Of a stretch of 55,012 nucleotides of DNA, positions 39,602 to 54,854 are shown in pieces. Within the stretch, counting starts at the first letter, position 1. Each line of letters begins with the position of its first letter. The position numbers and the translations under genes are program-made. Source of the DNA: an uncultured Syntrophaceae bacterium (GTDB lineage: Bacteria > Desulfobacterota > BSN033 > UBA1163); assembly GCA_964517975.1 (NCBI GenBank), contig CAZFDM010000190.1:1-55012 (forward strand), read 5' to 3'. Below the pieces are notes generated by a model that was not told the origin of the DNA, searched no databases, and saw nothing but the letters and a program-made list of their open reading frames with translations.

Positions 39602-39630
39602 TTGACAAATCTCTGAAAATTTGATTTAAA
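39602..39630 (+). promoter_or_regulatory. Candidate sigma70 promoter with extended -10
   Basis: CTTGACAAAT with TTGACA at 39602-39607, a 17-nt spacer and TGaTTTAAA at 39622-39630, about 30 nt upstream of the ATG at 39660. Confidence 0.4.
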
Positions 39631-39648
39631 TTAATTCAACTGAATTAA
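39631..39648. promoter_or_regulatory. Perfect 8-bp-arm palindrome between promoter and start codon (operator candidate)
   Basis: TTAATTCA-AC-TGAATTAA at 39631-39648. Confidence 0.4.
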
Positions 39649-39659
39649 TTGAAGAAAAA

Positions 39660-40250
39660 ATGAACATCCATACTCTCTCGCTTAAAAAGTTAACCAATGG
39701 ACTTCTTAAAAATGGATCCAAAGAGATGACCGGACGTATCCGGGGAATTCGGATCAGGGAAGCCATTGAAAAGTTTCTTGGAGAGAAGGAAGAAGGTCAG
39801 AAAGTTATTCTCGATTTTTCAGGAATAGGGCCCATTGATTTTTCTTGGGCTGATGAAGTCATTGCCAAAATCATATCGCGATTGTGGAGTGGCGAATATG
39901 GAGAAAAGTTTATTCTTTTAAGGGGATTAAACCCCTCTCAGGCAGAAAACATCTCTGTTGCCTTAGAAAGGAAGAGATTGGCTGTCCTGACCACTGGCCC
40001 TGGAGGTTGGCGAGTCATCGGATCTCTCAACAACTATTTGGTCCGAACCCTAAACCAGGTGATGAAAAAGAGGCAATTAACCCTAAGGGAACTCTCAGAT
40101 GAGGAAGGGATAGGGATGAACACGAGCGGGACGAGGCTCCTTAACCTCTATAAGAAGCGGCTGGTTGTGAGAGTTGAGAAAACTACCAAGAGAGGAAAGG
40201 AAATTTCCCATCGGACAAGGCCTTATGTCTACCAGTCCCTCCTCTCATAG
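39660..40250 (+). CDS. STAS-like (DUF4325-type) domain protein with C-terminal winged-helix-like region
   Basis: VILDFSGIGPIDFSWADEVIAKI resembles the DUF4325/STAS-like block. The C-terminal LTLRELSDEEGIGMNTSGTRLLNLYKKRLV is HTH-like. This assignment is from pattern memory only. Confidence 0.5.
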   Translation: MNIHTLSLKKLTNGLLKNGSKEMTGRIRGIRIREAIEKFLGEKEEGQKVILDFSGIGPIDFSWADEVIAKIISRLWSGEYGEKFILLRGLNPSQAENISVALERKRLAVLTTGPGGWRVIGSLNNYLVRTLNQVMKKRQLTLRELSDEEGIGMNTSGTRLLNLYKKRLVVRVEKTTKRGKEISHRTRPYVYQSLLS

Positions 40251-40259
40251 GAGAAATCG

Positions 40260-41246
40260 ATGTCAGAATTGAGAAGGGAACCCGTAACGAGAATGTGGGT
40301 AGTGACCACAACCGATCATCCCAAAGGACCATCGGATTATCTTCCTTTTAAACCACCCTACCGATTCCAAGAACCAGAGGGAGAATGTCCATTCTGTCCG
40401 GGTCATGAGGCAATGACTCCTCAGGAGACCTTTTCCATGAGAACAGAGAAGGGTGAATGGTTGGTTCGGGTTGTCCCCAATAAATTTCCTTTCTTCCATA
40501 TCGAAGGAGATTTTGATCGAAGACCTGAGGGGATGTACGACGTGATGGAGGCCATTGGTGCCCATGAGATTGTGGTGGAGAGCCCGGTCCATCAACAGAG
40601 CCTGGCCACGATGACCCCCCCCGAGATTGAGAGGATTCTCCTTGCTTATCGAGAGAGGTTTATCGACCTCAAGAAGGATCGGCGATTTGAACAGTTTCTT
40701 ATTCTAAAGAATTATCCAGGGATATTCAACCGTCATCCTCACTCCCATGTGGTGGCCATGCCGGTCATTCCTCGAAGAATTGATGAGGAGATCTGGGGAG
40801 TATTGGATTACTACCAAAGGCGAGAGAGGTGTATTTTCTGTGATATGATCAAAGAGGAGATCTCCGCCAAAAAGAGGATCGTCTTGGAGAGCGTCCATTT
40901 CTTGGTTTATTCACCCTTTGCCTCCCGATATCCTTTCGAAGTCTGGGTCATTCCCAAAAATCACTCCCCTGACTTTGATCAAATCACAGAGGAGGAAAGA
41001 GGAGATCTCTCCATTGCCCTCCACTCCCTTTTTGTTCGGTTTTATAAACTCCTATCCGATCCACCTTATAGTTTGACGTTCCACACCTCTCCCGTCCAAA
41101 GCAGATTCCATCGAAACGAATATCATTGGCATATTGAAACCCGACTAAGGATTGGATTGAGGGAAGGGTTTGAGTGGGGAACAGGTTTTTTTGTCAATCC
41201 CACTCCGCCTGAGTATGCGGCTGAATTATTAAGAGAAGTAGGATAA
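40260..41246 (+). CDS. GalT-family (HIT superfamily branch III fold) nucleotidyltransferase/phosphorylase, atypical HxHxH motif
   Basis: It has the zinc motif CPFCPGHE and the histidine motif NRHPHSHVVAMP where classical GalT has HPHGQ. The second half carries CIFCDMIKEE. Confidence 0.75.
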   Translation: MSELRREPVTRMWVVTTTDHPKGPSDYLPFKPPYRFQEPEGECPFCPGHEAMTPQETFSMRTEKGEWLVRVVPNKFPFFHIEGDFDRRPEGMYDVMEAIGAHEIVVESPVHQQSLATMTPPEIERILLAYRERFIDLKKDRRFEQFLILKNYPGIFNRHPHSHVVAMPVIPRRIDEEIWGVLDYYQRRERCIFCDMIKEEISAKKRIVLESVHFLVYSPFASRYPFEVWVIPKNHSPDFDQITEEERGDLSIALHSLFVRFYKLLSDPPYSLTFHTSPVQSRFHRNEYHWHIETRLRIGLREGFEWGTGFFVNPTPPEYAAELLREVG

Positions 41247-41264
41247 AAAAGCAAAGGCCTGAGG

Positions 41265-42572
41265 ATGAAGTATTTTGAATCGAAAAGATTGGATCGTCTG
41301 AGATGGTCTCCCCATAAAGCACGAAGGAGAAAGAGGAGGTGGCTCCTGTTTTCTGGCGTTCTCCTTGCAGGGCTCTTCCTGACCGCTTATTTTTTCTTGA
41401 TTCCTTCTAAACCCACAATTCCTCCCTCGCAAGGGACTGAACCGGTCGTATCCAAACCAGAGGAGGTAAAGCCTCAGACTATCGAAGGAGATATCAAACA
41501 AAAGAAGACTCTCTTTCAATCGTTGGTCGAAAAGGAGATCCCCCTTCACTGGATTGAACTGGTCATTTCAAAATTAAAACCCTACATCAATTTCAAAAAG
41601 ATAAAGGGAGGGGCTTACCGTCTCATCACTGACGGGAAAGGAGAGATGGTTAAATTTATCTATGAGGCGGGTCCCACGGAGGTTTATGAGATTGAGAAAG
41701 GGGAACATGGCTATTTTGTTCAAAAAAAGAGAATCCCTTTAGAGACCTACCTGGTAAAGGTATCGGGAGAGATTAAATTGTCGCTGTTTGAGGCCATGGA
41801 ATCTTTGGGTGAAGAGGATGGGTTGACCCTTGCCTTTGCTGAAATTTTGGCCTGGGAAATCGATTTTTACAAAGACGTGAGGGAAGGGGATCGGTTTAAG
41901 GTGGTCGTTGAGAAGGTTTACAAAGGAGACCAGTTTATTCAGTATGGAACGATCCATGCTGTTGAATATCAACGGAGAGATCGAGTGATTCGTGGAATAT
42001 ATTATAAAGGGCATTACTACAATGAAAAAGGGATTTCACTTCGGAAGCCTTTTTTAAAGGCTCCACTTAGGTTTATGAGGATCAGTTCAAGATTCACCCA
42101 GGCAAGAAGACATCCCATTCTTGGCGGGGTCTTTCCCCACCATGGGGTAGATTATGCTGCACCCATAGGGACCCCTGTGTGGGCGGTGGGAGATGGGACC
42201 GTGGTTCAATGTGGATGGAACGGAGGGTTTGGAAAACAGGTCGTCATCCGACACCGAAATGGATATATGACATTTTATGGCCATCTTTCTAATTTTGCTC
42301 AAGGAATTAAAAAAGGGGTTTCGGTCAAACAGAAACAGGTCATCGGCTATGTGGGTTCAACCGGGCTTTCTACAGGACCCCATTTAGACTATCGGTTGGC
42401 CAAAGATGGGAGGTTTAGAAATCCTTTAAGAGAGACCTTTTCGTCAGGAATGCCTATGGAGAAGAAAGAGATAGGTCCGTTTCAAGAGAAAAGGGATAAA
42501 ATGCTCACTTGGCTCCAAGGGGATCCTCTTTACAAAAAGAGGATAGAAGAAAGGATCGATTTGGAAAGATGA
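41265..42572 (+). CDS. M23 family metallopeptidase (LytM-type), membrane anchored
   Basis: One N-terminal TM segment, plus HHGVDYAAPIGTPV and GSTGLSTGPHLDY (HxxxD and HxH motifs). Confidence 0.85.
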   Translation: MKYFESKRLDRLRWSPHKARRRKRRWLLFSGVLLAGLFLTAYFFLIPSKPTIPPSQGTEPVVSKPEEVKPQTIEGDIKQKKTLFQSLVEKEIPLHWIELVISKLKPYINFKKIKGGAYRLITDGKGEMVKFIYEAGPTEVYEIEKGEHGYFVQKKRIPLETYLVKVSGEIKLSLFEAMESLGEEDGLTLAFAEILAWEIDFYKDVREGDRFKVVVEKVYKGDQFIQYGTIHAVEYQRRDRVIRGIYYKGHYYNEKGISLRKPFLKAPLRFMRISSRFTQARRHPILGGVFPHHGVDYAAPIGTPVWAVGDGTVVQCGWNGGFGKQVVIRHRNGYMTFYGHLSNFAQGIKKGVSVKQKQVIGYVGSTGLSTGPHLDYRLAKDGRFRNPLRETFSSGMPMEKKEIGPFQEKRDKMLTWLQGDPLYKKRIEERIDLER

Positions 42573-42970
42573 GTAAGAAAGAAGAGACGATGAAAGAAAA
42601 GAAAAAAATTCTTATTGTGGATGATGAAAGGGATATTGTGAAGGCCTTGATGATTCGACTTCAGTCCAAAGGATATGAGGTAGTCGTGGCTTACGATGGA
42701 GCCCAAGGGATTTTTATGGCCCATAAAGAGAATCCCGATTTGATCCTGCTCGATATCCGAATGCCAGCAGGGGATGGGTTTAGTGTGGCTGAAAAATTGA
42801 AGCAGTCGGACGATACCCGAGCCATCCCCATCATCTTCCTCACCGGAAGTCCAGAAAAAAATGCTGAGGGAAGGGCCATGGAGTTAGGGGCAAGGTTTTA
42901 CATCAAGAAGCCCTATGATCCCGAGGAACTATTGGATGCAATGGAAAGGGCCCTTGAGACAAAGACCTAA
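42569..42970 (+). CDS. Single-domain response regulator (CheY-like receiver)
   Basis: ILIVDDE, DLILLDIRMP, IIFLTGS and KKP blocks. ATG 42569 overlaps the M23 stop (ATGA). Confidence 0.85.
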   Translation: MSKKEETMKEKKKILIVDDERDIVKALMIRLQSKGYEVVVAYDGAQGIFMAHKENPDLILLDIRMPAGDGFSVAEKLKQSDDTRAIPIIFLTGSPEKNAEGRAMELGARFYIKKPYDPEELLDAMERALETKT

Positions 42971-43008
42971 GGGTTGAGGGAAGGTCTCTTTCATTTGAGG
43001 TTCCATAG

Positions 43009-43365
43009 ATGCTCAAAGAGGACTTTGTCATTTTTTCTAATATTCGACGTATCCTGATACGGACCAGCATCGATTATTCGAAACTGGATTTCGGTAGCAT
43101 CAGGGGGGTGGTTTATCTGAGAGGGGTTTTTCAACTTCCCCGACACTTAGCGGGAGAGGATCAAGAGAAGGTTAAAGAGATTTCAGAAAAAACCCTCTTT
43201 TCTCTCGAAAAGAAGTTAAGAAATATTCCGGGGGTTTCCGATGTCCTTTTCCAATTCGAAAATTGGAGGAAGGAAAGGGGACAATGGGTTCCTATAGAAA
43301 AGAAAAGGAAGGCAGAAGAGATGAAGGAAGAAGAAGATGAGGAGAAAACCCGATCAGATTTATAG
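43009..43365 (+). CDS. Hypothetical protein (BON-like core, E/K-rich tail)
   Basis: 118-aa ORF with a GAGG RBS 8 nt upstream. VVYLRGVF...IPGVSDVLFQF is vaguely BON-like, with no firm family call. Confidence 0.4.
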   Translation: MLKEDFVIFSNIRRILIRTSIDYSKLDFGSIRGVVYLRGVFQLPRHLAGEDQEKVKEISEKTLFSLEKKLRNIPGVSDVLFQFENWRKERGQWVPIEKKRKAEEMKEEEDEEKTRSDL

Positions 43366-44368
43366 AAAGATTTTGGGGGAGATAGAGAAGGCTCTCGAGT
43401 CCCATCCCAATTATGCGGACCTCCACCATCAATTAGGTCTCCTTTTCATTGCTCAAGGAGATCGAAGGAAAGCAGAGAGTCATTTTATAAAGGCCCTTCG
43501 CATCAATCCAAACTATCAGGAGGCAACCTTTAACCTTGGTTGCCTATACCTTGAAATGGGACGAGGGACCGAGGCCGAAAAGATCTTTCTCGCTGAATTG
43601 AAAAAATCTCCAAAGGGAGGGCACCTTCACCATCTTTTAGGAATGGTTTATCTCAAGAGGGGAAGAAAGAGGGAGGCGCTTTCTCAGATGAGAAAGGCGA
43701 TTCAGTGTTGTCCCTATTATGTCGATTTCTATAAAAAGAACGGTTTCTGGAAAGAAGGAAGGCTTGATCCTGGAGTAAAGGCAGAAGAGTTTTTAAAGAG
43801 GTTTCCTCAAAATTACCACTCCGCCCAACTTCACCATTTCGTTGGAATTTACCTTGCCCAAAAAGGCAGACCTACCCAGGCAGTTCAGGAATTGAAAAAG
43901 GCGGCGAAATGGAATCCCGATCAATTCCTATTCCATGCTAATCTTGGAGCAGTTTATTATTTTCAGGGATCGTATTCCAAAGCGATTCAGGAATACCAGA
44001 AGGCCTTAAAGATCAATCCCCTTTACGGTATGGGGTATGCTCATCTCAGTTATCTTTATGGTTTGATCGGGCAAACACGGAAAGCCCTTTGGAATATGAA
44101 AAAGGCGGTTAGCCTCAATCCCAATTATGCAGATCTTCACTACAACCTTTCCCTACTTTATAGTGATCGAAAACAGTATGAAAAGGCCATTTCAGAATTG
44201 AAAAAAGCCCTTCACATCAATCCTCAATACATCTTGGCAAGGGTTAATTTGGGTGTCCTTTATGAGGAACAGAAGAAGTATCCTTTAGCGAAGAAGGAAT
44301 ACAAAAAAGTTCTCCAGATCAACCCTGATGATGAACATGTTCGGAAGCGTCTGGAGAGAATTTCCTGA
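43337..44368 (+). CDS. Tetratricopeptide (TPR) repeat protein
   Basis: About nine 34-aa repeats of the form A..Y.KAL.INP.Y..A..NLG. The 5' end overlaps the previous ORF by 29 nt, so the start is uncertain. Confidence 0.8.
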   Translation: MRRKPDQIYRKILGEIEKALESHPNYADLHHQLGLLFIAQGDRRKAESHFIKALRINPNYQEATFNLGCLYLEMGRGTEAEKIFLAELKKSPKGGHLHHLLGMVYLKRGRKREALSQMRKAIQCCPYYVDFYKKNGFWKEGRLDPGVKAEEFLKRFPQNYHSAQLHHFVGIYLAQKGRPTQAVQELKKAAKWNPDQFLFHANLGAVYYFQGSYSKAIQEYQKALKINPLYGMGYAHLSYLYGLIGQTRKALWNMKKAVSLNPNYADLHYNLSLLYSDRKQYEKAISELKKALHINPQYILARVNLGVLYEEQKKYPLAKKEYKKVLQINPDDEHVRKRLERIS

Positions 44369-44386
44369 GGTGAGGGGAAAGGAAAG

Positions 44387-45469
44387 ATGGCACAACCCAT
44401 TTTAAAGAACAGATCAGAAGTTCTTACGATGCTGATTATTCATCAAGGGGCATTGGGTGATTTCATTCTGGCCCTTCCAGTTTTAAAAAATCTAAAGAAT
44501 ACTTTTCCCCATTCAAAGGTGGTCATTCTCGGATATCCAAGAATTCTTGAACTGGTAGAGGGGCATTTTTATGCGGAGCAGGTTCTTTCCATCGATCAGA
44601 AAGGGATGGCTACTTTCTTTGTCCAGAACGGATTTTTAGATTATACGCTCTCAGAATTCTTCAAAAAATTTGATCTGATAGTCCTCTTTGGGAAAGATCA
44701 AGGGGGGATCCTTCTTCGTAACCTTAATCGAATCTGTCAGGGTGTAGTCCTTCCTATCAATTCTTTTCCAACTTGGGATGAAAGGATCCACCTCACAGAC
44801 CACCTCCTCCGTCAACTTTCCAGATATGGTTTTTCCATTTCAGAGTCTTTGCCTAAACTCTATTTAAACGAGACGGACCGAAGTTGGGCAAAGGAATTTT
44901 GGAAAGAGAAAGGTTTGGATGGAAAGGGAAGGGATGGAGTGATAGTGGTTCATCCAGGGAGTGGGAGCAAAAAGAAGGTCTGGCCATTGGAAAGATTTGT
45001 TGAACTTGTTCAAACCCTGAAGAATCACTTCCTCGTCCATTTTCTCATTGTCCTTGGCCCAGCAGAAGGGATAGAGGTTCAAAAGGCCTTTGAGAGGATA
45101 GGAGACCCTCCACCCATTATCGTAAGGGGACTTTCTTTGCTTCAACTTGCTTCGGTAATGGAGGGGTGCGGGCTATTTGTTGGAAACGACTCTGGCATCT
45201 CCCATATGGCCTCTGCACTGGGAATTCCGACCATTGCAATTTTTGGACCTACGGATCCAAAGGTGTGGTCTCCAAAAGGAGAAAGGGTTTTGGTTGTTCG
45301 ACGAGAGATCCCCTGTTCCCCCTGCTCTGAAGAACGATTCTTTCTATGCAGACATTTTGACTGTTTAAGATCCATTGAAACCCAGGAGGTTTTAAAGGCG
45401 ATCGAGAAGATAGGAGTGAAATTCAAATTTAGAAAGGAGGAAGAAGATGGAAGAGAAGAAAGTCGGTGA
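44387..45469 (+). CDS. Glycosyltransferase family 9 (LPS heptosyltransferase-like)
   Basis: MLIIHQGALGDFILALPVLKNLKNTFP... and the C-terminal GNDSGISHMASALGIPTIAIFGPTDP block. Confidence 0.8.
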   Translation: MAQPILKNRSEVLTMLIIHQGALGDFILALPVLKNLKNTFPHSKVVILGYPRILELVEGHFYAEQVLSIDQKGMATFFVQNGFLDYTLSEFFKKFDLIVLFGKDQGGILLRNLNRICQGVVLPINSFPTWDERIHLTDHLLRQLSRYGFSISESLPKLYLNETDRSWAKEFWKEKGLDGKGRDGVIVVHPGSGSKKKVWPLERFVELVQTLKNHFLVHFLIVLGPAEGIEVQKAFERIGDPPPIIVRGLSLLQLASVMEGCGLFVGNDSGISHMASALGIPTIAIFGPTDPKVWSPKGERVLVVRREIPCSPCSEERFFLCRHFDCLRSIETQEVLKAIEKIGVKFKFRKEEEDGREESR

Positions 45470-45701
45470 GGTGATCAAATTTTTTGGGAAGATAAGCGTG
45501 GCGGCCATTCGGCTTACGGATACCTTAAAGGTCGGAGATAAGATCCATATTGTTGGGCATACCACTGATATCACCCAGACGGTTGAGTCCATGCAGATTG
45601 AGAATAAGAATGTTCAGGAGGCAGGCCCTGGCGCAGATATTGGGATTAAAGTGAAAGACAGAACAAGAGAACACGATACCGTTTATAAAATTATGGAGTA
45701 A
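45447..45701 (+). CDS. EF-Tu domain-2-like small beta-barrel protein (translation elongation factor-like protein)
   Basis: The 84-aa sequence VGEVIKFFGKISVAAIRLTDTLKVGDKIHIVGHTTDITQTVESMQIENKNVQEAGPGADIGIKV matches this family. It has a strong RBS (AAAGGAGGAAGAAG) and overlaps the GT9 3' end by 23 nt. Confidence 0.6.
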   Translation: MEEKKVGEVIKFFGKISVAAIRLTDTLKVGDKIHIVGHTTDITQTVESMQIENKNVQEAGPGADIGIKVKDRTREHDTVYKIME

Positions 45702-45705
45702 AGGG

Positions 45706-46827
45706 GTGCCCCTCAGGAAGGCAGAGGCACAAGAGAAAAAATGCCTTGCCTGTGGAAAGAAGGCTAAAATTCTTTCTCAGGCCCTCCAGGTCTGCTTGGA
45801 TTGTCTTCGATCAGGGGGAGAGACCGTTCAACCTCTTATTGAGGAGGCCCACTACCGATGTCGAGCCCCTTTCCGGTTGGTTAATCGGCCTCCAAAGGAT
45901 GAGGCCGGGATTCCTTGTTCAATCTGCACCAACCAGTGTAGAGTCCCTGAGGGAGGATGGGGATATTGTGGATTGAGGACACAAAAAGGAGGAGTCCTCA
46001 GTGGAGTCTCTCCGGAAGAAGGGAATGTCAGTTGGTATTATGATGGATTGCCAACAAATTGTGTTGCGGATTGGGTCTGCCCTGGTGGGACAGGCGCTGG
46101 ATATCCCCAATATGCCTATACGGATGGACCTGAATATGGTTTTAAGAACCTGGCGGTCTTTTATCATGGATGCTCCTTCGATTGTCTCTTCTGTCAGAAT
46201 TGGACTTATCGGGAGAGGGTTTGGGATAAAGACAGGGTTACTCCTGAAAGGCTGGCAATGGCGGTCGATGAGAAGACCAGTTGTATCTGTTATTTTGGTG
46301 GTGACCCCACTCCTCAACTTCCCCATTCGATCGAGGCCTCGAAGAAGGCATTGGAAAAGGCTCAAGGAAGGATTCTTCGTATCTGCTGGGAGACCAATGG
46401 TTCGATGAATCCCCATCTATTAGAAGAGGTGATGGCGATTTCTTTAGCCTCCGGAGGATGTGTCAAATTTGATATCAAGGCATGGAGCGATTCCCTTCAC
46501 CAAGCTCTCTGTGGCGTTTCTAATAAAAGGACCCAAGAGAATTTTGAACGGGCCAGCCAGTGGATCAGAAAAAGGCCTAACCCTCCACCCTTGATTGCCA
46601 GCACCCTTCTTGTCCCTGGGTATATTGATGAGGGAGAGGTTCGGGCGATTTCAAGATGGATTGCATCCCTTGACCCAGAGATTCCTTATTCCTTATTGGC
46701 CTTCTATCCCCAATTCTTTTTTAAAGACCTTCCCACCACCTCAAGGGCTTTTGCTTTTAGATGTAAAGAGGTGGCTGAGGAAGAAGGTCTTCGGAGAGTT
46801 AGGATTGGAAATATACACCTGCTATAA
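45706..46827 (+). CDS. Radical SAM enzyme (COG1180/PFL-activase-like) with N-terminal Cys-rich extension
   Basis: CSFDCLFCQNW (CxxxCxxC), N-terminal CLACG...CLDC and CSICTNQC...YCG. GTG start 4 nt after the previous stop. Confidence 0.75.
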   Translation: MPLRKAEAQEKKCLACGKKAKILSQALQVCLDCLRSGGETVQPLIEEAHYRCRAPFRLVNRPPKDEAGIPCSICTNQCRVPEGGWGYCGLRTQKGGVLSGVSPEEGNVSWYYDGLPTNCVADWVCPGGTGAGYPQYAYTDGPEYGFKNLAVFYHGCSFDCLFCQNWTYRERVWDKDRVTPERLAMAVDEKTSCICYFGGDPTPQLPHSIEASKKALEKAQGRILRICWETNGSMNPHLLEEVMAISLASGGCVKFDIKAWSDSLHQALCGVSNKRTQENFERASQWIRKRPNPPPLIASTLLVPGYIDEGEVRAISRWIASLDPEIPYSLLAFYPQFFFKDLPTTSRAFAFRCKEVAEEEGLRRVRIGNIHLL

Positions 46828-46828
46828 T
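46820..46828 (+). promoter_or_regulatory. Extended -10 promoter element TGcTATAAT overlapping the radical SAM stop codon
   Basis: TGCTATAAT at 46820-46828 is a perfect TGnTATAAT, about 85 nt upstream of the MNT start at 46914. No good -35 is present. Confidence 0.35.
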
Positions 46829-46913
46829 CCTGAGTTCATTCCCTCTCCTCGGATCGGAGAGTTCGGAGTCAGGAGAATTTGGATAGAGTTTGGAAGAAGA
46901 TAGAGAACGAAAT

Positions 46914-47267
46914 ATGGCAATAAAGTTGGGATTATCTGAAAAGAGGAAGAAGGGCCTGGAAAAAGAATTGGATAGAGTCCTTCCCATTCTGATAAACTTG
47001 GGGGTAAAAAAGATTATCCTATTTGGTTCGTTATCTGTCGGAAGAGTCCATCGGTCCAGTGATATCGACCTGTTGATTATTAAGGAATCAAATCAGCGTT
47101 TTTTGGATCGATTGGATGAAATTTACCAAGCGGTCAGACCCCGCTATGGCATCGATTTCTTTGTTTACACCACTGAGGAATTTGAAGAGATGAGGTTAAC
47201 CAATTTATTCTTAAGGAGGGCTGTTAAAGAGGGGAGACTACTGTATGAAGTCGAATCCAATGAATGA
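46914..47267 (+). CDS. Minimal nucleotidyltransferase (MNT) domain protein, antitoxin-type partner of HEPN
   Basis: LFGSLSVGRVHRSSDIDLLI (GS-x9-DxD NTase motif). I chose the ATG at 46914 over the TTG at 46890. Confidence 0.8.
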   Translation: MAIKLGLSEKRKKGLEKELDRVLPILINLGVKKIILFGSLSVGRVHRSSDIDLLIIKESNQRFLDRLDEIYQAVRPRYGIDFFVYTTEEFEEMRLTNLFLRRAVKEGRLLYEVESNE

Positions 47268-47652
47268 AGCACGCCGTTGGCTTTTGCAGGCAGAACAAGA
47301 CCTTGACGATGCGGAGTTTAATCGTTCTGGTGGAAGATACAACGTGGCCTGTTTTCTTGCTCAGCAATCGGCAGAGAAGGGATTGAAGGCTTACCTTTAT
47401 TCAAAAGGGGCTGAAGAGGTGTGGGGGCATTCTGTAGCAGAACTTTGTAAAGATGCCCAAACATTTGATCCAGAATTTAAGCAATTAGATATCAATGCTG
47501 CCCCCCTCGATAAATATTATATTCCCACTCGTTACCCCAATGCCTTGCCTGGTGGCATTCCTTCAAAGGCGTTTGATGAGAACGATGCTAAGAACGCTAT
47601 TCGTTTGGCCAAAGAGGTGATCAATTTTGTGAAGATTAAGGGAGGGTTTTAG
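47245..47652 (+). CDS. HEPN domain protein (toxin-type partner of MNT)
   Basis: 135-aa helical protein with the YYIPTRYPNALPGG block typical of PF05168-type HEPN. It overlaps the MNT gene by 23 nt. Confidence 0.8.
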   Translation: MKSNPMNEARRWLLQAEQDLDDAEFNRSGGRYNVACFLAQQSAEKGLKAYLYSKGAEEVWGHSVAELCKDAQTFDPEFKQLDINAAPLDKYYIPTRYPNALPGGIPSKAFDENDAKNAIRLAKEVINFVKIKGGF

Positions 47653-48344
47653 TGACCCGAGACTCGTCTTTTACTGTTCGCGATCTTCCAAAATCAGAGA
47701 GGCCTCGGGAAAGGCTTCAGAAATTCGGTCCGGAGGCTCTTTCTGCTCAAGAGCTTTTGTCTCTGGTCATTGGTCGTGGTATCCCTAAGAAGTCCGTAAT
47801 GAGTATTGCCCAGGAATTGTTGGCAAAGTTTGGCAATATCAAGGCGATAAGTCAGGCAACCATAGAGGAACTCTCCCAAATAAAGGGGATTGGTCTTGCG
47901 AAAGCAGCCCAGATTAAAGCTTGTTTTGAACTTGGAAAGAGAGAGGACTTAGAACCGGAGCTGAAAAATTTTGATATCAAAGAACCTGAGGCAGTTGTAA
48001 AAGCTATTCGAGCAAGTATTAAGGATAAAGCGAAGGAACATTTTAAGCTTATTCTTCTGAATCCTCGTAATAAAATTATCGGAATTTCCACTATCTCCAT
48101 CGGCACACTCAATGCCAGCTTGGTTCATCCAAGGGAAGTTTTTAAGGATGCCATCACCCACAGCGCTGCTTCTGTAATTTTAGCCCATAACCACCCCTCC
48201 GGAGACCCCGAACCCTCAGAGGATGATATAAAAATCACCAAGAAATTAGTAGACTCCGGGAAAATTTTAGGCATTGAGGTTTTAGACCATATCGTTATCG
48301 GTAAAAGTAATTTTTTTAGCTTCAAGGAAAGGGGATTGATTTAA
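47652..48344 (+). CDS. radC: RadC-family JAB/MPN domain protein
   Basis: N-terminal HhH region (ELLSLVIGRGIPKKS...IKGIGLAKAAQI) and JAB motif HNHPSGDPEPSEDD. The GTG start overlaps the HEPN stop by 1 nt. Confidence 0.9.
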   Translation: MTRDSSFTVRDLPKSERPRERLQKFGPEALSAQELLSLVIGRGIPKKSVMSIAQELLAKFGNIKAISQATIEELSQIKGIGLAKAAQIKACFELGKREDLEPELKNFDIKEPEAVVKAIRASIKDKAKEHFKLILLNPRNKIIGISTISIGTLNASLVHPREVFKDAITHSAASVILAHNHPSGDPEPSEDDIKITKKLVDSGKILGIEVLDHIVIGKSNFFSFKERGLI

Positions 48345-48348
48345 GGCC

Positions 48349-50361
48349 ATGAACAAAATAAGTTACAAACCTTTAGAAGAAGAAGTTAAGGCCGATGAGA
48401 TCTTAGACCTTGTTTTTAAAGATTCTTCCGTAAAACATGGATTGCAGGAGTTTTCTAAAAATATCTTAAAAAGGATCAAAGCCTTTGAAAAAGAGGATGG
48501 GAAGTTTTATGTCCATTGCTTAAAAAGAAGTAAAGATATATTCATCTACGATAAAAATAAAAAGATAGGAAAACCCGAGGAGGTCATCCGTCAACTTTGG
48601 CTGATTAAGTTAACCCAGGAATATAAGTATCCATTAGAGAGGATTGAAGTTGAGAAGTCAGTGCAATTCGGCACCGAAGTTCGGGAGAAGTCGGCTGACA
48701 TTGTTTTGTATAAAGAGGATAAGATTACACCTTACATTATTTTTGAGTTAAAACAGCCAAATGCAAAAAAGGCTGAAGAACAATTGAAGTCTTATTTAAG
48801 TGCAGAAGGGGCGGAAGGTGGAGTTTGGTCAAACGGTATCCAGCGATTTATACTATATCGCCCTTACCCGAAAGAATATATAACCACCCTTTCGGACATC
48901 CCCAATGTTAATCAGACATGGGACGACCTTTTTGAAGAGAAAAGGATCTATGATGAATTGCAGGAGAAGTTTGACCTATCCTTCATAATTTCAAGGCTTG
49001 AGGAGATGGTCTTGGCACAGGCTGGCGTCAATGTCTTTGAGGAAGTTTTTAAGTTGATCTATGCAAAACTTTATGACGAAGATCAAGCCAAGAATTTTCG
49101 GACAAAAAGGGAGGTCTATTTCAGACAATATAAAGAGCCCAAAAAGACTTATGCTGTAATCAATGATGAGCTTTTTAAAGGCGCAATTGAGGAATGGAAA
49201 GATATTTTTAACCCATTATCAAAAATCGATCTGTCACCAGAACAACTTCAAATCTGTGTTCCTTTCTTAGAAGATAAGAAATTTTTTGGCTCAGGCAGGG
49301 AGGAATTGGAAATTATAGACCGTGCTTTCGAACATTTGATTGCAGAGGTCTCAAAAGGGCAAAAGGGCCAATACTTTACACCTCGCAATGTGATAAAGAT
49401 GTGCGTGAAAATGCTTAATCCTAAAAAGAATGAATATGTGATTGACCCAGCTTGTGGATCAGGAGGGTTCTTACTTCATACAATGTATTGGGTATGGGAT
49501 AATGACTTAAAATCTGCCTCAACAACAGCAAAACAAAAATATGCTAATCGCTATCTTTATGGGATTGATTTCGATGATAATATGCGTCGTATATCTCAAG
49601 CCTTGATGCTCATTGCTGGTGATGGAAGACACAATATTTTTAAGCGTAATTCTTTAGATGGTAGAGACTGGGTGGGCGAGCAAGCAGAGGAGGCAAGGGC
49701 TTCTTTGAAATCACTTCTGAGGAATTTCGATAATCCAAAACAAAACGAAGAAAACCGGAAGACCTATCGATACCTCAATTTTGATATATTGATGACAAAC
49801 CCTCCTTTTGCAGGTGAGATTACAGATTCTGGCCTTCTTCGGCAATATGAATTTGCCAAGAAGGATGGGAAGCTTAAACAAAAGGTTGAAAGGCATTTAC
49901 TATTTATAGAGCGGTCTTTGGATGCCCTTCGTCCCAGTGGAAGAATGGCAATCGTATTGCCACAGGGAGTTTATAATAACACGAATATGGAATGGCTTAG
50001 ATTATGGCTTTTCGAAAAAGCCCGAATCCTGGCAGTGGTTGGATTGGAAGGAAATACCTTTAAACTTCCAGCCCCAGCAAAAGGCACAGGGACAAAAACC
50101 TCCGTCTTATTCTTAAAGAAATGGGGAGAAGATGAGAAACCATTAGAGGATTATCCCATATTTATGGCAGTTTCAAAGAAATCAGGGAAAGATAACTCTG
50201 GCGAGTATATTTTTCTGAATGAAAAAGGGCAAAGAGTAAAATCCGAAGGTGGTATCTTCGAAACTTCAGAAAAGCTAAAGCTTGATGATGATTTGGACGA
50301 GATTGCCGAAGAATTTGTGAAGTTTGCGAAGAGAGAGAAATTTGAGTGGTGGTGTGAATGA
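48349..50361 (+). CDS. N6-adenine DNA methyltransferase (gamma class) fused to an N-terminal HSDR_N/PD-(D/E)xK-like nuclease domain
   Basis: N-terminal ADIVLYKEDKITPYIIFELKQPNAKKAEEQLKSYL (D...ExK), MTase motif I DPACGSGGFL and motif IV NPPF. 670 aa, starting 4 nt after the radC stop. Confidence 0.85.
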   Translation: MNKISYKPLEEEVKADEILDLVFKDSSVKHGLQEFSKNILKRIKAFEKEDGKFYVHCLKRSKDIFIYDKNKKIGKPEEVIRQLWLIKLTQEYKYPLERIEVEKSVQFGTEVREKSADIVLYKEDKITPYIIFELKQPNAKKAEEQLKSYLSAEGAEGGVWSNGIQRFILYRPYPKEYITTLSDIPNVNQTWDDLFEEKRIYDELQEKFDLSFIISRLEEMVLAQAGVNVFEEVFKLIYAKLYDEDQAKNFRTKREVYFRQYKEPKKTYAVINDELFKGAIEEWKDIFNPLSKIDLSPEQLQICVPFLEDKKFFGSGREELEIIDRAFEHLIAEVSKGQKGQYFTPRNVIKMCVKMLNPKKNEYVIDPACGSGGFLLHTMYWVWDNDLKSASTTAKQKYANRYLYGIDFDDNMRRISQALMLIAGDGRHNIFKRNSLDGRDWVGEQAEEARASLKSLLRNFDNPKQNEENRKTYRYLNFDILMTNPPFAGEITDSGLLRQYEFAKKDGKLKQKVERHLLFIERSLDALRPSGRMAIVLPQGVYNNTNMEWLRLWLFEKARILAVVGLEGNTFKLPAPAKGTGTKTSVLFLKKWGEDEKPLEDYPIFMAVSKKSGKDNSGEYIFLNEKGQRVKSEGGIFETSEKLKLDDDLDEIAEEFVKFAKREKFEWWCE

Positions 50362-51725
50362 TAACCTATTCCATTATCCAAAAATCTAAACTTGAAAGGG
50401 CATGTCGACTGGATGCAGAATATTACCAGCCGGAATATTTAGAATTAGAAAAGAAAATACTTTCGACAAAGTCATATAAACTTTGGGGCAATATAGAAGG
50501 ACGATTTATTACTGGCCCGTTTGGTTCCGAATTTGGTGTTGAAAATTATACCTCCGGAACTCAATATAGATATGTTCGTGGCAAAGACGTAAAAGAATTT
50601 TTTCTCCTCGATGGTGATAATGTTTATATACCAGAGAAAGATTACGAAAGACTTAAAAAATATTCACTTAAAGAGCATGACATTCTTGTTTCAGTGGTCG
50701 GAACGCTTGGTAACGCTGCAATTGTTGATAGCTCTATAATTCCTGCTATATTTAGTTGTAAGAGCACAGTTTTTCGTACTGATTTTATTAATCCTTATTA
50801 TTTTATTGCCTATCTTAACTCACAATATGGTAGAAAACTTTTGGAACGAAGTGTCCGGGGCGCTGTTCAAACTGGCCTTAACATAGAAGATCTAAAGTCT
50901 TTGCCTGTTTTTACACCTTCGCCGAAGATACAGGAATCCATAGCCTTAACTGTTTTGAATGCAAAAGAGGAACATGGCAAATCTAAATTTCTTTATTCCC
51001 AAGCTGAAGATTTGCTTTTGGAGGAGTTAGGCTTAAAGGATTTCAAACCGACGGAGGAGTTATCTTATATTGTCAATCTCTCCGAGGTAAAATCTGCTTA
51101 CCGTGCCGATGCCGAATATTTCCACCCGAAATATGAGAAAATAATACAGAAAATTAAAAAGCAGAATCTTAAAGCTCTCGGTGATTTAGTTTCGTTAAAG
51201 AAAGGATTTGAACCTGGAAGTGAAGAATATCAAAACGAAGGCAAACTATTTATTCGAGTTAGCAATATTTCTAAACATGGCTTAATTGATAAAGACCAAA
51301 AATATCTGAGCGATGGGTTATATCAGAAATTAAAAAAAGATTTTGAGCCAAGGCCTGGAGAAATTTTACTTACTAAAGATGCAAATCCTGGTATTGGCTA
51401 TGTGCTGAAAGAATCACTTGAAGGTATAATCGCAGGAGGAATTATAAGATTAAAACCTAAAGAAGATATTGAAGCCGAATATTTAGCGCTTTGCATCAAT
51501 TCAATCATTGGACAAATGCAGATTGACCGAGACGTTGGTGGATCGGTCATTGTCCATTGGAAGCCAGAACAAATTAAAAAATTACAAGTTCCTATTCTTC
51601 CAAAATCCACCCAAGAAAAAATTGCTGATTTGGTTATCCAATCTCACCAAGCACACAAAAAGGCAAAAGAACTTTTAGAGAAGGCAAAAAGAGAAGTGGA
51701 AGAGTTTATTGAGAAGAATCAATAA
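50358..51725 (+). CDS. hsdS: Restriction-modification specificity subunit (HsdS-like, two target-recognition domains)
   Basis: 455 aa with a duplicated TRD/conserved-helix layout (RLDAEYYQPEY... and YRADAEYFHPKY...). ATGA overlap with the methylase gene. Confidence 0.85.
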   Translation: MITYSIIQKSKLERACRLDAEYYQPEYLELEKKILSTKSYKLWGNIEGRFITGPFGSEFGVENYTSGTQYRYVRGKDVKEFFLLDGDNVYIPEKDYERLKKYSLKEHDILVSVVGTLGNAAIVDSSIIPAIFSCKSTVFRTDFINPYYFIAYLNSQYGRKLLERSVRGAVQTGLNIEDLKSLPVFTPSPKIQESIALTVLNAKEEHGKSKFLYSQAEDLLLEELGLKDFKPTEELSYIVNLSEVKSAYRADAEYFHPKYEKIIQKIKKQNLKALGDLVSLKKGFEPGSEEYQNEGKLFIRVSNISKHGLIDKDQKYLSDGLYQKLKKDFEPRPGEILLTKDANPGIGYVLKESLEGIIAGGIIRLKPKEDIEAEYLALCINSIIGQMQIDRDVGGSVIVHWKPEQIKKLQVPILPKSTQEKIADLVIQSHQAHKKAKELLEKAKREVEEFIEKNQ

Positions 51726-51728
51726 AAC

Positions 51729-51845
51729 ATGAAAACAGAAAACGAATTCTTTAAGGCAAAAAGACCCTAGTCAAAAATAAAAGATCAGGTCATTGAAAAC
51801 TATCTGGTTCCCTATCTGAATAAGGTTTCAACAAGAATTGGGGAT
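51729..51845 (+). pseudogene. Remnant of a TcmP-like (three-Cys-motif partner protein) gene N-terminus with in-frame TAG
   Basis: MKTENEFFKAKRP*SKIKDQVIENYLVPYLNKV fits the family N-terminal pattern W-[ST]-x2-K-x3-[LI]-x2-Y-L-x2-Y if TAG 51768-51770 was TGG. The remainder of the about 250-aa family is absent. Confidence 0.4.
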
Positions 51846-51941
51846 GGGTCCAAATTTCTAAATGATAAGGAAAAATCAACAAATCCGATTGGCTTATCGA
51901 CCAAATCTTCTATAAGCTTTATTAATTGGAGGGATAGAAGT

Positions 51942-52259
51942 ATGAAGATAGATATTGATCAACTCAGTGAATCGGAACTTATTGACCTAAATAACAGGAT
52001 TGTTCAACGTTTGCGCTTCCTAAGGCAGAAGCATGCTCATGAGGATATGCTTAAATTTAGCATAGGGGATCGTGTAACTTTTCAACCTGAGGGCCGATCA
52101 CCAATAGTCGGGATGGTTACTCGCTACAACCGTAAGACTGTAACAGTAATTACTAACGATGGCCAGCATTGGAATGTTTCACCGATTCTCCTCCAAAAGG
52201 TAATCCCAAAAAGTGAAGAGACGTCAGAAAATAAGGTGATTCCGTTTAGAAAAGAATAG
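51942..52259 (+). CDS. Small conserved-looking hypothetical protein (helical N-terminus plus SH3/KOW-like beta C-terminus)
   Basis: 105-aa ORF with a GGAGGG RBS. FSIGDRVTFQPEGRSPIVGMVTRYNRKTVTVITNDGQHWNVSP looks like a small beta-barrel. I recognised no family name. Confidence 0.5.
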   Translation: MKIDIDQLSESELIDLNNRIVQRLRFLRQKHAHEDMLKFSIGDRVTFQPEGRSPIVGMVTRYNRKTVTVITNDGQHWNVSPILLQKVIPKSEETSENKVIPFRKE

Positions 52260-52319
52260 GCTAGTCTAGTCTATCCATCGGACTCTAAGGTATTCTTTCT
52301 TATTGCCCCCTCGGGGATT

Positions 52320-52860
52320 GGGAGAAAAACCCTCGCCTTTAGGCGAAGACTTTAGTATGCTTGCGGTATGGAAAACTACCGGAAATCGAGCCATACCGTT
52401 TATGATCTGAAATATCACTTTGTGTGGGTCACCAAGTACCGCAAGCCGGTTTTGGGGGGGGGAGATTGCCGAGCGAGTGCGAGATTTGATCCGTGAGATA
52501 TGTAAGGCAAATGATGTGGAGATCCTCAAGGGGCATATCTCGAAGGAGCATGTGCATATCTTTGTGTTGGTGCCGCCCCACATTTCGGTTAGCGAATTGA
52601 TGCAATCGGTCAAAGGGAAGACTTCCCGAAAGATGTTGATGGAGTATAAGAGTTTGAGTCGGGCGTTTTGGGGGCGGCATATGTGGGCTCGGGGCTATTT
52701 TGCGGCCAGTTCCGGCAATGTGACCGACGAAGTGATCATGAAGTATATCGAACAACAAGGGTTTGAGCCTCCCGACAAGGACTTCAAGATCGAGGAAGAA
52801 CTTTAGTCGGCTTGCAGCCGAACTCAAACCTACCGCCTTCAGGCGGTAGTAGTTTAGTTC
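52320..52860 (+). mobile_element. IS200-type (IS200/IS605 family, tnpA only) insertion sequence; ends approximate
   Basis: A Y1/HUH transposase gene is flanked by similar subterminal hairpins. The left hairpin is CCTCGCCT-TT-AGGCGAAG at 52331-52348. The right hairpins are TCGGCT-TGC-AGCCGA at 52807-52821 and CTACCGCC-TTCA-GGCGGTAG at 52830-52849. No tnpB is present. Confidence 0.7.
52368..52806 (+). pseudogene. tnpA: IS200 transposase TnpA, reading frame broken by +1 in a 9-G run
   Basis: MENYRKSSHTVYDLKYHFVWVTKYRKPVLGG (frame of 52368) continues as EIAERVRDLIREICKANDVEILKGHISKEHVHIFV...ARGYFAASSGNVTDEVIMKYIEQQ in the frame of 52420. HUH is HVH. The G-run at 52454-52462 has 9 G, whereas 8 G would give one 145-aa ORF. 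Confidence 0.8.
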
Positions 52861-52881
52861 GAATAGATGGGGTAATGAGAA

Positions 52882-53529
52882 ATGACAAAGTGTTGGTTCT
52901 GTAAGACTCAAAAAGGAAAGAGGTATTGTTCTCCAATTGATAATTTTCTTTGTCCTACTTGTTGTGCAGAAAGTAGGCTTAAAAAGATAGACTGTCCTGA
53001 AGGGTGTAGATATCTGGAAGGGGTGGATTATCAGAGAAAACGGACAGAAGAGAGAAAAATTTCAGAATTGATGGCAAGTGTTCCGCACGGGGAGTATGAT
53101 GATATTTTTCAGGATAAGGAGGTTGCGTTAATGGCAGGAGAGATTGAGACACTGGTGAGGGATATTTATGTAAATGGAAATTTTCGAATTACAGACAAAT
53201 CAGTATTTGATTCTTATAGGAAGATTTATGAAATTCATATGAGTAATCAATCGCCCGAAGAGGGACAATTGGATGAGTTGACACGAGAATTATGGAAATT
53301 ATATAAGAGCAATATAAGGTCGTGGGAATTTAATATGAATCATCATAAGGTTGGTCAGGTGTTTTTAAGATTAATGATCTCCGTTAGGACTATAAGTGGG
53401 GGTGTTATGGGAGAGTTCGGTTATCTGAATTTTTTAAAGAACAATTTGGGTAGTTTTGATATAGAAGACGAGTTCATTGTGGAAGATAAGTTTGGGAATA
53501 AGAGTCGGCGTGGTTATAAAAATGATTAA
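52882..53529 (+). CDS. Hypothetical protein with N-terminal Cys-rich (zinc-binding-like) module
   Basis: CWFCKTQKGKRYCSPIDNFLCPTCCAESRLKKIDCPEGC holds nine Cys in 40 aa. 215 aa, with RBS GATGGGG. Confidence 0.55.
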   Translation: MTKCWFCKTQKGKRYCSPIDNFLCPTCCAESRLKKIDCPEGCRYLEGVDYQRKRTEERKISELMASVPHGEYDDIFQDKEVALMAGEIETLVRDIYVNGNFRITDKSVFDSYRKIYEIHMSNQSPEEGQLDELTRELWKLYKSNIRSWEFNMNHHKVGQVFLRLMISVRTISGGVMGEFGYLNFLKNNLGSFDIEDEFIVEDKFGNKSRRGYKND

Positions 53530-53567
53530 TTTGAAATATGAATCTTAAAACAGAAAGGATAAAAACT

Positions 53568-54635
53568 ATGGAAGAAAAGAAATTTCAACCCAAAAAACTT
53601 ACTTTATCCCATACTAAGCAGGAAATGTTGGAGGCCTATAATGCAGTTTTGAAACAATTGGAAGCACAAAGGGATGCAGAGATAAAACCCGAAAAGAGGC
53701 TTGAGGAGAAGAAGGCAAAGGAGATGATTCAGGTTGCAGAGTCGTTGTCGACAGAGGGTGTTTCAAGGGAGATAAGCAATCTGAAGATAGAAACATCTAA
53801 GATGCTAGCACAGATTTCTGATCGCCTTGAGGAAGAGGTGAATAAGTTTAAGGCAATCCAAAATGCTATAGCATTGAAGGAAAAAGAGCTTCAGGAGCTT
53901 TATGAGATTGAGAGATCAGCCGTAACACTGGGTGCTTTGATTGAGGCTCAGAATCAGAAGCGCCAAGCATTTGAAATTGAGATGGCTGAGAAAAAAGAGG
54001 CTATAACTCAGGAGATTGAAGCTCTTCGAAAGCAAAAGGAGGAAGAGAAAAAGAAGTACGAAGAGGAGGTTAAAGAACGTGACCTTATAGAGAAAAAAAG
54101 ACGAGAAAGGGAGAAGGAAGAGTATGAGTATTCATTTAAAAGAGAGCAAAAATTGGCAAAAGACAGATTTGAGGATGAGAAGGCAAAGCTTGAAAGGGAA
54201 ATTCAGCTCAAAAGGGAACAAATGGAGAATGAATTGAAAGAAAGGGAAAAAGCAATTGCTGGAAAAGAGGAAGAATTGAATGAATTAAAGAAAAGGGTTA
54301 ATTCCTTTCCTAAGGAATTGGAAGCTGCAGTTTCGAAGGCAGTCAAAGAGACAACTGAGAGGTTAAATCTTGAAGCCAAAAATAGGGAAGAGTTGATGAA
54401 GAAGGATTTTATAGGTGAGCGAAATGTTTTGACTACAAGGATTGAATCTCTTGAAAAGATTGTAAAAGAGCAGAGCGAACAGATTACTAAGCTTACTCAG
54501 CAACTGGAAAAGGCCTACCAACAGGTCCAGGAGATTGCTGTGAAAACGATCGAGGGTTCCGCAGTTGGAAAGTCCATTACAAATCTTCAACAATGGATGG
54601 CTGAACAAATGAAAAAATCTTCTCAGGAGAAGTGA
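53568..54635 (+). CDS. Long E/K-rich coiled-coil protein, function unknown
   Basis: About 355 aa, heptad-like and E/K/R/Q-rich throughout. I chose the ATG at 53568 behind AAAGGA. The ORF is open from 53538, 8 nt after the previous stop. Confidence 0.6.
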   Translation: MEEKKFQPKKLTLSHTKQEMLEAYNAVLKQLEAQRDAEIKPEKRLEEKKAKEMIQVAESLSTEGVSREISNLKIETSKMLAQISDRLEEEVNKFKAIQNAIALKEKELQELYEIERSAVTLGALIEAQNQKRQAFEIEMAEKKEAITQEIEALRKQKEEEKKKYEEEVKERDLIEKKRREREKEEYEYSFKREQKLAKDRFEDEKAKLEREIQLKREQMENELKEREKAIAGKEEELNELKKRVNSFPKELEAAVSKAVKETTERLNLEAKNREELMKKDFIGERNVLTTRIESLEKIVKEQSEQITKLTQQLEKAYQQVQEIAVKTIEGSAVGKSITNLQQWMAEQMKKSSQEK

Positions 54636-54775
54636 TTCCGCAAAATTGGGAGCAGTTTCACATTAGGGGGTTAATGATCACATTTAGGGAAAATATTCAG
54701 AGTTACTCGGGTTAAAATTGTAGGTTTTTAACTGCAATTGTAGTATTATTTACTGCAATATTTTGAAATGCGTTC

Positions 54776-54793
54776 TTATTATTATTATTATTA
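54776..54793. repeat. (TTA)6 microsatellite
   Basis: Six perfect tandem TTA units in the leader region upstream of the DUF763-like gene. Confidence 0.8.
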
Positions 54794-54854
54794 TGATGGA
54801 AATACTCTTAGGATCTAAGTTGAGAGCCAAGGTATTGAGGGGTAAAGGTAAGAA

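Follow-up and report, generated by a model that had tools for sequence, protein, structure and literature searches.

Do five genes packed end to end in an uncultured Syntrophaceae bacterium make up one composite defence system, or has close packing joined parts of different origin? The genes lie on contig CAZFDM010000190.1 (GenBank assembly GCA_964517975.1) within a stretch of 55,012 nt, positions 1 to 55,012 of the forward strand, which was analysed whole and is called the window below. In order they encode a minimal nucleotidyltransferase (MNT), a HEPN-domain protein, RadC, a DNA methylase (M) and a specificity subunit (S). A preliminary description of the sequence had proposed that the block couples a toxin-antitoxin (TA) pair and a JAB-domain protein to a restriction-modification (RM) core as one composite defence unit. 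Comparison with related loci makes it quite probable that the block is instead a mosaic of two units, a radC-RM-S cassette and an MNT-HEPN pair, which are probably co-transcribed, with RadC a putative accessory of the enzyme and the pair a dispensable rider. The earlier proposal stands as to the linkage of RadC to M and S and the retention of all five genes in close relatives, but the MNT-HEPN pair is not integral to the unit. Because M carries a nuclease domain of its own it is referred to as the RM subunit; homologous loci are cited by L numbers and metagenomes by X numbers. The domain calls given earlier for MNT, HEPN, the RadC JAB domain, the methylase and S were all confirmed by Pfam, and the features are as follows.

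46914..47267, + strand: MNT, antitoxin-like, with an ATG start at 46914 or alternatively a TTG start at 46890 (Pfam NTP_transf_2/Polbeta, E 7e-9)
47245..47652, + strand: HEPN-domain protein (PF05168) of TT1696/TM0613 type, toxin-like (Pfam, E 2.4e-32)
47652..48344, + strand: full-length RadC with UPF0758_N, HhH and JAB domains and an intact HNHPSGDPEPSEDD motif (Pfam; NCBIfam)
48349..50361, + strand: RM subunit, 670 aa, with an N-terminal PD-(D/E)xK nuclease (about residues 60-190) and a gamma-class N6-adenine methyltransferase (MTase) (Pfam, PDB, PADLOC)
50358..51725, + strand: S subunit with two target-recognition domains (TRDs) (Pfam Methylase_S in two stretches; PADLOC Specificity_I over the full length)
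46820..46828, + strand: extended -10-like motif TGCTATAAT, candidate promoter of the block (sequence)

The packing of the five genes was borne out at every junction when the sequence was re-read. MNT and HEPN overlap by 23 nt (MNT ends at 47267, HEPN starts at 47245), the HEPN stop codon TAG (47650-47652) shares a single G with the GTG start of RadC at 47652, RadC (ending at 48344) is separated from the ATG of the methylase at 48349 by 4 nt (GGCC), and the methylase (48349-50361) overlaps S (50358-51725) by ATGA at 50358-50361. The extended -10 motif TGCTATAAT is present at 46820-46828, with the MNT ATG 86 nt downstream; it lies across the 3' end of the radical-SAM gene ahead of the block (45706-46827), over the final codons and the stop. 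Lacking a -35 match, the motif was not called by a consensus promoter scan, and in the sister strain L209 it reads TGCTTTAAT. A scan for terminators returned five weak terminator-like hairpins; three on the + strand and one on the - strand fall within coding sequence, with none between genes or after S, and a single transcript of the block is plausible from this arrangement. No Rfam family matched the window, and no direct repeats or att-like sites were found at the flanks of the block.

RadC and the RM-S enzyme

The three genes radC, RM and S form a widespread cassette in which RadC is the usual first gene. In a metagenome sample of 80 loci with M, 55 of them informative, a RadC or UPF0758_N protein lies upstream of M on the same strand in 47; the corresponding figure for informative loci in species-representative genomes is 15 of 24, the locus counts ignoring shared ancestry. 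The genome loci with a RadC-M arrangement belong to Thermodesulfobacteriota, Nitrospirota, Omnitrophota, Caldisericota, WOR-3 and Patescibacteria. RadC and RM are directly adjacent in 33 of the 47 metagenome loci, with the 4-nt spacing of the window in 24 of those 33, while the remaining 14 carry one to four small genes between them. Across the metagenome loci the RadC partners are 35-95% and the RM subunits 61-99% identical to those of the window, and at least 15 junction architectures are represented. Since the RadC lineages and the junctions are this diverse, chance adjacency is untenable, and the packing of RM with RadC exceeds chance (the 4-nt spacing recurs in 24 of the 47 RadC-bearing metagenome loci). 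RadC is thus no accidental neighbour of M and S, in line with the earlier proposal: across many phyla, about 80% of the informative loci have RadC or a UPF0758_N protein ahead of this methylase. Distant RM relatives (36-41% identity) had no RadC neighbour. An early view of RadC as a plain housekeeping neighbour was revised by the metagenome sample.

The RadC of the window is a complete family member, scoring 263 bits against a cutoff of 180 for the NCBIfam equivalog PRK00024 and carrying the parts that define the family (PRK00024/TIGR00608), namely UPF0758_N, HhH and a JAB domain with the HxH...S..D motif (AHNHPSGDPEPSEDD). Partners elsewhere are not always so complete. In an RM subgroup of about 70% identity, which includes the Patescibacteria loci, the protein upstream of M keeps only the UPF0758_N/HhH module (107-134 aa) and has no JAB motif (L269 and L278-L284; N-terminal-module-only partners also in L010, L012, L276 and L288); in some loci of this subgroup the UPF0758_N module stands alone and in others beside, or fused with, a nuclease-like/DUF5655 module. 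In four further loci (L013, L286, L287 and L293) the leader of the same RM family is LexA, with wHTH and S24 domains in place of the HhH and JAB domains of RadC here. The two leaders are equivalent in position, LexA being, like RadC, a DNA-binding protein with a peptidase fold, and the parallel is offered as a suggestion only. One metagenome-assembled genome (MAG) has a second RadC (L074) besides the M-linked one (L191).

We favour, at even chances or slightly below, the reading that RadC is a functional partner of RM whose alleles are shuffled. It is preferred because of the partners reduced to UPF0758_N, the strict upstream, co-directional position across divergent RadCs, and the MAG with two RadCs. 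In a more specific form, which is tenable though rather short of even, RadC would act through its UPF0758_N/HhH module as the functional third component of a widespread helicase-less (BcgI-like) RM family, as a control factor or a DNA- or protein-processing factor, at the leader position that LexA takes in Patescibacteria. With an HhH DNA-binding module and a JAB metal-enzyme domain, RadC may serve the enzyme as an accessory factor for DNA processing or control; it might limit self-restriction, remove enzyme stuck on DNA, or process cut ends. A role for the RadC JAB domain in nucleic-acid processing has been proposed by Aravind and colleagues (PMC5512222). RadC occurs in nearly all bacteria and has no known function ('RadC, a misleading name?', cited in PMC5512222). 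Literature searches for radC together with hsdM/hsdS or restriction-modification returned no description of radC-led RM operons.

The enzyme that RadC precedes was previously taken as the modification and recognition core of an RM system. The N6_Mtase domain and the two-TRD S subunit are as described, but the account was incomplete, as M bears its own conserved nuclease domain. Pfam assigns HSDR_N_2 to residues 76-185 (E 2.8e-22) and N6_Mtase to residues 322-651 (E 1.2e-33), and the best match in the PDB is RM.BsaXI (8w0p, E 1.3e-25). Thirteen homologues from several phyla (72-90% identical) were aligned, and E100, D117, E133, K135, the DPACGSGGF of motif I and the NPPF of motif IV are invariant among them. 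The spacing E100...D117...E133-x-K135 is that of E73/D90/E105/K107 in BsaXI, residues whose mutation abolishes cleavage (PMC11997821). There is no HsdR, ResIII or helicase ORF among the large ORFs of the 55-kb window, and none of 31 large neighbour proteins from about 105 related loci has hallmarks of HsdR. Because M carries the conserved nuclease domain, M and S are best read, from these sequence features, as a complete BcgI/BsaXI-like RM+S enzyme of type IIB-like kind, nuclease included.

The resemblance to BsaXI (PDB 8w0p) and BcgI comprises the N-terminal PD-(D/E)xK domain and gamma-class N6-adenine MTase in one polypeptide, a separate two-TRD S gene just downstream and translationally coupled, and the lack of a helicase or translocase. 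Of the features that define type IIB, the nuclease-MTase fusion, the separate two-TRD S and the lack of a translocase in the window are found, and cleavage on both sides of the site would be expected of such an enzyme. The likeness has limits: the sequence alignment with BsaXI covers only the connector and MTase region (residues 229-596), BsaXI has 916 residues with a 'knob' and a 'paddle' whereas the RM subunit of the window has 670 and lacks both, and a RadC-led operon is not reported for either BcgI or BsaXI. By analogy RM and S would assemble as (RM)2S; the complex would modify adenine at its bipartite site in host DNA, and incoming DNA in which the site is unmethylated would be cut close by, without translocation or an ATP-driven HsdR motor. 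Such proteins are numerous, 7635 of 8000 candidates scored matching at E<=1e-20, with the 120 best at least 83% identical and many phyla represented.

Type I systems share with the block an HsdM-like MTase, an HsdS-like S subunit with an ATGA overlap, and the best PADLOC models, MTase_I (PDLC03034, 526 bits for RM) and Specificity_I, which match M and S in the PADLOC check called for earlier; TA genes inside the operon are a known feature of type I as well. They differ in that no HsdR occurs in the window or near the roughly 105 relatives, and the HSDR_N nuclease domain usual for HsdR is part of the methylase polypeptide. Among named NCBIfam/PADLOC models, MAD2 comes closest for M and MAD5 for S. 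Membership in MADS (methylation-associated defence system), which comprises mad1-mad8 and includes ATPase and nuclease modules and a kinase (PMC13662399), was rejected on scores of 278 against 720 bits for MAD2 and 166 against 400 for MAD5, the other six mad genes being absent from the block.

Both S and radC vary between strains. In a strain about 96% identical to the window (X4 contig) the first TRD of S (about 50393-50997) is replaced by some 600 unrelated bases, and in L216 S is only 67% identical while RM is 99% identical; the TRD1 exchange suggests ongoing diversification of specificity by TRD shuffling. Within radC, positions 47906-48305, the JAB half, are 82-88% identical to the sister strain, with flanks at 96-100%. 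Against L216, a strain of the window's own species, dS is 0.47 for RadC, 0.05 for HEPN and 0.07 for RM. The GC content falls from about 0.44 to about 0.37 near position 48000 inside radC and stays low through RM and S, and the RadC of L004 has a similar 3' mosaic. The 3' half of radC (47906-48305) thus seems to be a recombination patch with a breakpoint inside the gene, and on this view the cassette moves horizontally and recombines within radC.

The wider family also bears marks of exchange. RadC and RM identities are discordant (L008 and L191 share 37% in RadC and 85% in RM, L196 and L198 50% and 84%), and a single ancestral RadC-M fusion followed by co-divergence was rejected on that ground. 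The RM-linked RadCs do not group together in the RadC tree but are scattered over several clades among RadCs with different neighbours. Where a close RadC homologue has no such RM beside it, other defence genes often follow, among them an N4/N6 MTase with a CfrBI-like restriction endonuclease, an OLD-like ATPase-TOPRIM protein with a helicase, AlbA_2/SLFN and AAA_14-DUF4143. Immediately 3' of the RadC stop codon, L020 (6700-6780), L031, L038 and L055 share a conserved palindrome, TCACAAATTGTGA (variant TCACAATTTGTGA); it precedes an ORF6N gene in L020 and L055 and may be an operator.

The MNT-HEPN pair and the cargo of related cassettes

The first two genes of the block have the outward form of a type VII TA pair of the HepT/MntA kind, with a small MNT bearing a GS...DxD motif (GS...SDIDL, GSLSVGRVHRSSDIDL) and an overlapping HEPN gene downstream. 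They differ from it in that the HEPN protein belongs to PF05168 and not to HepT/DUF86, no HepT model of Pfam or NCBIfam matches it, and MNT reaches 26 bits against a cutoff of 60 for the NCBIfam model MntA. In addition the Rx4-6H motif of the HEPN protein reads R-Y-P-N-A-L-P, with the His replaced by Leu. The nearest PDB entry, TT1696 (1ufb, E 1.6e-22), keeps the His in RYPDAH, and RYPxxL is the norm in HEPN relatives of 55-84% identity. With dN/dS 0.07 each against L217, MNT and HEPN both show purifying selection, and MNT lies upstream of HEPN in 44 of 59 homologous loci with a called HEPN ORF.

The earlier proposal that the pair is an integral part of the unit fails in the comparisons. The syntenic locus L022 matches the window over 39620-45763 and 46678-46827 and then passes, within 31 nt of the radical-SAM stop codon, to RadC; neither MNT-HEPN nor RM-S occurs at this site. 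The pair is missing there and from all but the closest relatives. Among 79 loci with a HEPN 55-84% identical, only L021 is RadC-linked, and there an AlbA_2 gene takes the place of RM-S. The homologues otherwise occupy unrelated contexts: among 148 flanking proteins at 56 loci, mostly housekeeping, no RM family is found in the 25 commonest, that is, RM genes are not enriched beside HEPN homologues. In the more distant relatives of metagenomes X3, X5 and X6 homology to the window stops at 46876, where the insertion has its left edge, and in other cassette loci DNA matching the window starts right at the start codon of RadC. To judge from these alignments, MNT-HEPN is a lineage-specific insertion between the host radical-SAM gene and radC, a rider on the cassette.

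The insertion is older than the species yet confined to a small clade, since L217 keeps the five-gene order. The pair probably now supplies the promoter and is translationally coupled to radC; it may co-regulate or stabilise the cassette, or serve as an independent back-up, and would not be required for the cassette. Just upstream of MNT, strains of runs X3 and X4 have an 11-nt deletion at 46874. A candidate empty site lacking the whole island (an X3 contig joining 46876 to 54854) was set aside, as one side spans 29 nt and two narrower lay-outs failed to reproduce it.

Other cassettes carry other riders. The RM-S frame is constant across loci, and inserted genes occupy several slots around it. 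Between RadC and RM stand MNT/HEPN_SAV_6107 in L008 and MNT with a 134-aa protein in L198; elsewhere the slot before RM holds SocA/Panacea (L003), AbiEii (L188), Fic (L189), DUF1016 or an MNT-HEPN of another family. DUF3800, ORF6N, DUF5677, NYN and unknown proteins lie between RM and S, and the slot after S holds DUF3800, DarT-Macro (L211), MNT-HepT (L213) or a TcmP/SPL radical-SAM gene, with MNT-HEPN-type pairs of other families in L213/L267 and L277. Judged by this gene content, the cassette repeatedly attracts TA and abortive-infection (Abi) modules, and no particular one belongs to it. In L211 (8463-10206) RadC-RM-S, with an RM 90% identical, is directly followed by the DarTG-like DarT-Macro pair and by a gene for an AEP/DEAD helicase.

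Strain comparison and flanking genes

The search for the same five-gene order that had been suggested finds it in L209/L216, in L217 and on a metagenome contig of the strain about 96% identical (X4). L209, L210 and L216 (RM 99% identical) have radical-SAM-MNT-HEPN-RadC-RM-S, then a 632-aa TcmP+SPL fusion and then DUF763, and L217 keeps the order at 79% identity for the radical-SAM protein, 75% for MNT, 83% for HEPN, 90% for RadC and 93% for RM. The genes of the block have dN/dS values of 0.03-0.08 against L217 and L018, indicating purifying selection. Variation between the strains is found to the right of S, among the following flanking features.

45706..46827, + strand: host radical-SAM gene on the left flank (Pfam Radical_SAM; L022 synteny extends to here)
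51729..51809, + strand: radical-SAM (SPL-like) remnant downstream of S, 27 codons with an in-frame stop (tblastn)
51810..54853, + strand: strain-specific block replacing the radical-SAM gene (comparison with L209 and the X4 contig)
51942-52259: orf105, in the strain-specific block
52420-52806: IS200-type Y1 transposase (Pfam Y1_Tnp)
52882-53529: orf215, in the strain-specific block
53538-54635: coiled-coil orf365, in the strain-specific block

The 27 residues of the remnant match the start of the 345-aa SPL-only gene of L001 at 93% (tblastn). At its place L209 (13379-15277) has an intact gene whose 632-aa product joins TcmP (three-Cys-motif partner, TIGR04474) to an SPL-like radical-SAM domain. 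About 1.9 kb with the SPL gene separates S from DUF763 both in L209 and in the X4 contig, and the match to the window resumes at 54853. SPL-like genes follow S in about ten related loci. Homologues of orf365 (about 80% identity) lie a few kb downstream of RadC in L018, L019, L020, L023, L232 and L285; in L046 the homologue stands ahead of a truncated RadC. Before the DUF763 gene the window has an (ATT)n(ATG)n tract at 54778-54797, to which one metagenome run adds six ATG units at 54792.

One system, separate modules or a mosaic

That all five genes form one composite defence system, in which the TA pair serves as a sensor or as a back-up by abortive infection and RadC is functionally tied to the RM core, is quite improbable. 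The tight coupling across all five genes, an order conserved in L209/L216, L217 and the X4 strain, the purifying selection on every gene and the recurrence of MNT-HEPN-type pairs in other positions at the cassette (L008, L198, L213, L277) would all be expected of such a system; however, the pair is common to the closest relatives only, more than 70 other cassette loci have no MNT-HEPN at all, its homologues occupy unrelated contexts, and the many unrelated genes in the slots form a pattern of swappable cargo. Farther still from likely is the idea that M and S are an orphan type I-derived MTase for epigenetic regulation, with a dead relic as N-terminal domain and no restriction. The nuclease residues are invariant over homologues 72-90% identical from several phyla, their spacing is that of the closest relative of known structure, which is an active type IIB enzyme, and in its horizontal spread and its accumulation of defence cargo the family behaves like restriction systems. 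These points are set against the lack of an HsdR, the source names of the RM homologues ('N-6 DNA methylase' or 'type I restriction enzyme M protein') and the occurrence of TRD swapping in phase-variable methylases too.

It is also unlikely, if less so, that three independent modules have met at a defence hotspot, with radC a housekeeping anchor beside which cassettes land or recombine and which has no role in restriction. A RadC tree broadly congruent with host taxonomy, the presence in L022 of RadC at the same chromosomal site without M-S, the other systems downstream of close RadC homologues (CfrBI restriction endonuclease, OLD-like, AlbA_2/SLFN, AAA_14-DUF4143), the recombination breakpoint and GC shift within radC and the discordance between RadC and M identities are all as a hotspot would have them. 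What it leaves unexplained is an adjacency of about 80% in which RadC invariably lies upstream and in the same direction, in RadC lineages that share only 35-50% identity and are too divergent for homologous recombination to account for it. Nor does a mere anchor fit the M subgroup of about 70% identity that keeps only UPF0758_N beside M, alone or fused to the nuclease/DUF5655 module, or the MAG with a second RadC (L074 beside the M-linked L191), and no recombinase able to target radC is present.

Several observations nonetheless weigh against a mosaic of a RadC-led enzyme and a dispensable pair. Given that congruent RadC tree, and with RadC and M-S on different contigs in three MAGs, RadC could be a resident gene used only as a site of insertion and recombination. 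The AlphaFold2 model of the RM subunit, built from the 13-sequence alignment, has a pLDDT of 39.8, too poor to confirm the nuclease fold. With Leu in place of the canonical catalytic His, the HEPN protein is uncertain even as a toxin. The cassette is found with an MNT-HEPN-type pair at least five times, the families differing, and this recurrence hints at more than random hitch-hiking. Co-transcription is argued from gene spacing and the lack of predicted terminators; the sequencing runs that contain this sequence are all DNA metagenomes, from hot springs and sediment.

Neither the RM enzyme nor the TA-like pair is out of the ordinary, each belonging to a known kind, and the evidence does not support a super-system of five parts. 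If the locus has something new to teach, it lies in the recurring RadC partner. The annotation 'HsdR-less type I' on thousands of genes conceals complete type IIB-like restriction enzymes, if the reading of M and S given here holds, and the locus illustrates how RM operons serve as docking sites for TA and Abi cargo. A three-gene cassette with a RadC that can be deleted and assayed makes the function of RadC directly testable, and if RadC is indeed a functional partner of the enzyme, the cassette would provide the first concrete functional context for a protein whose role has been unknown for decades.

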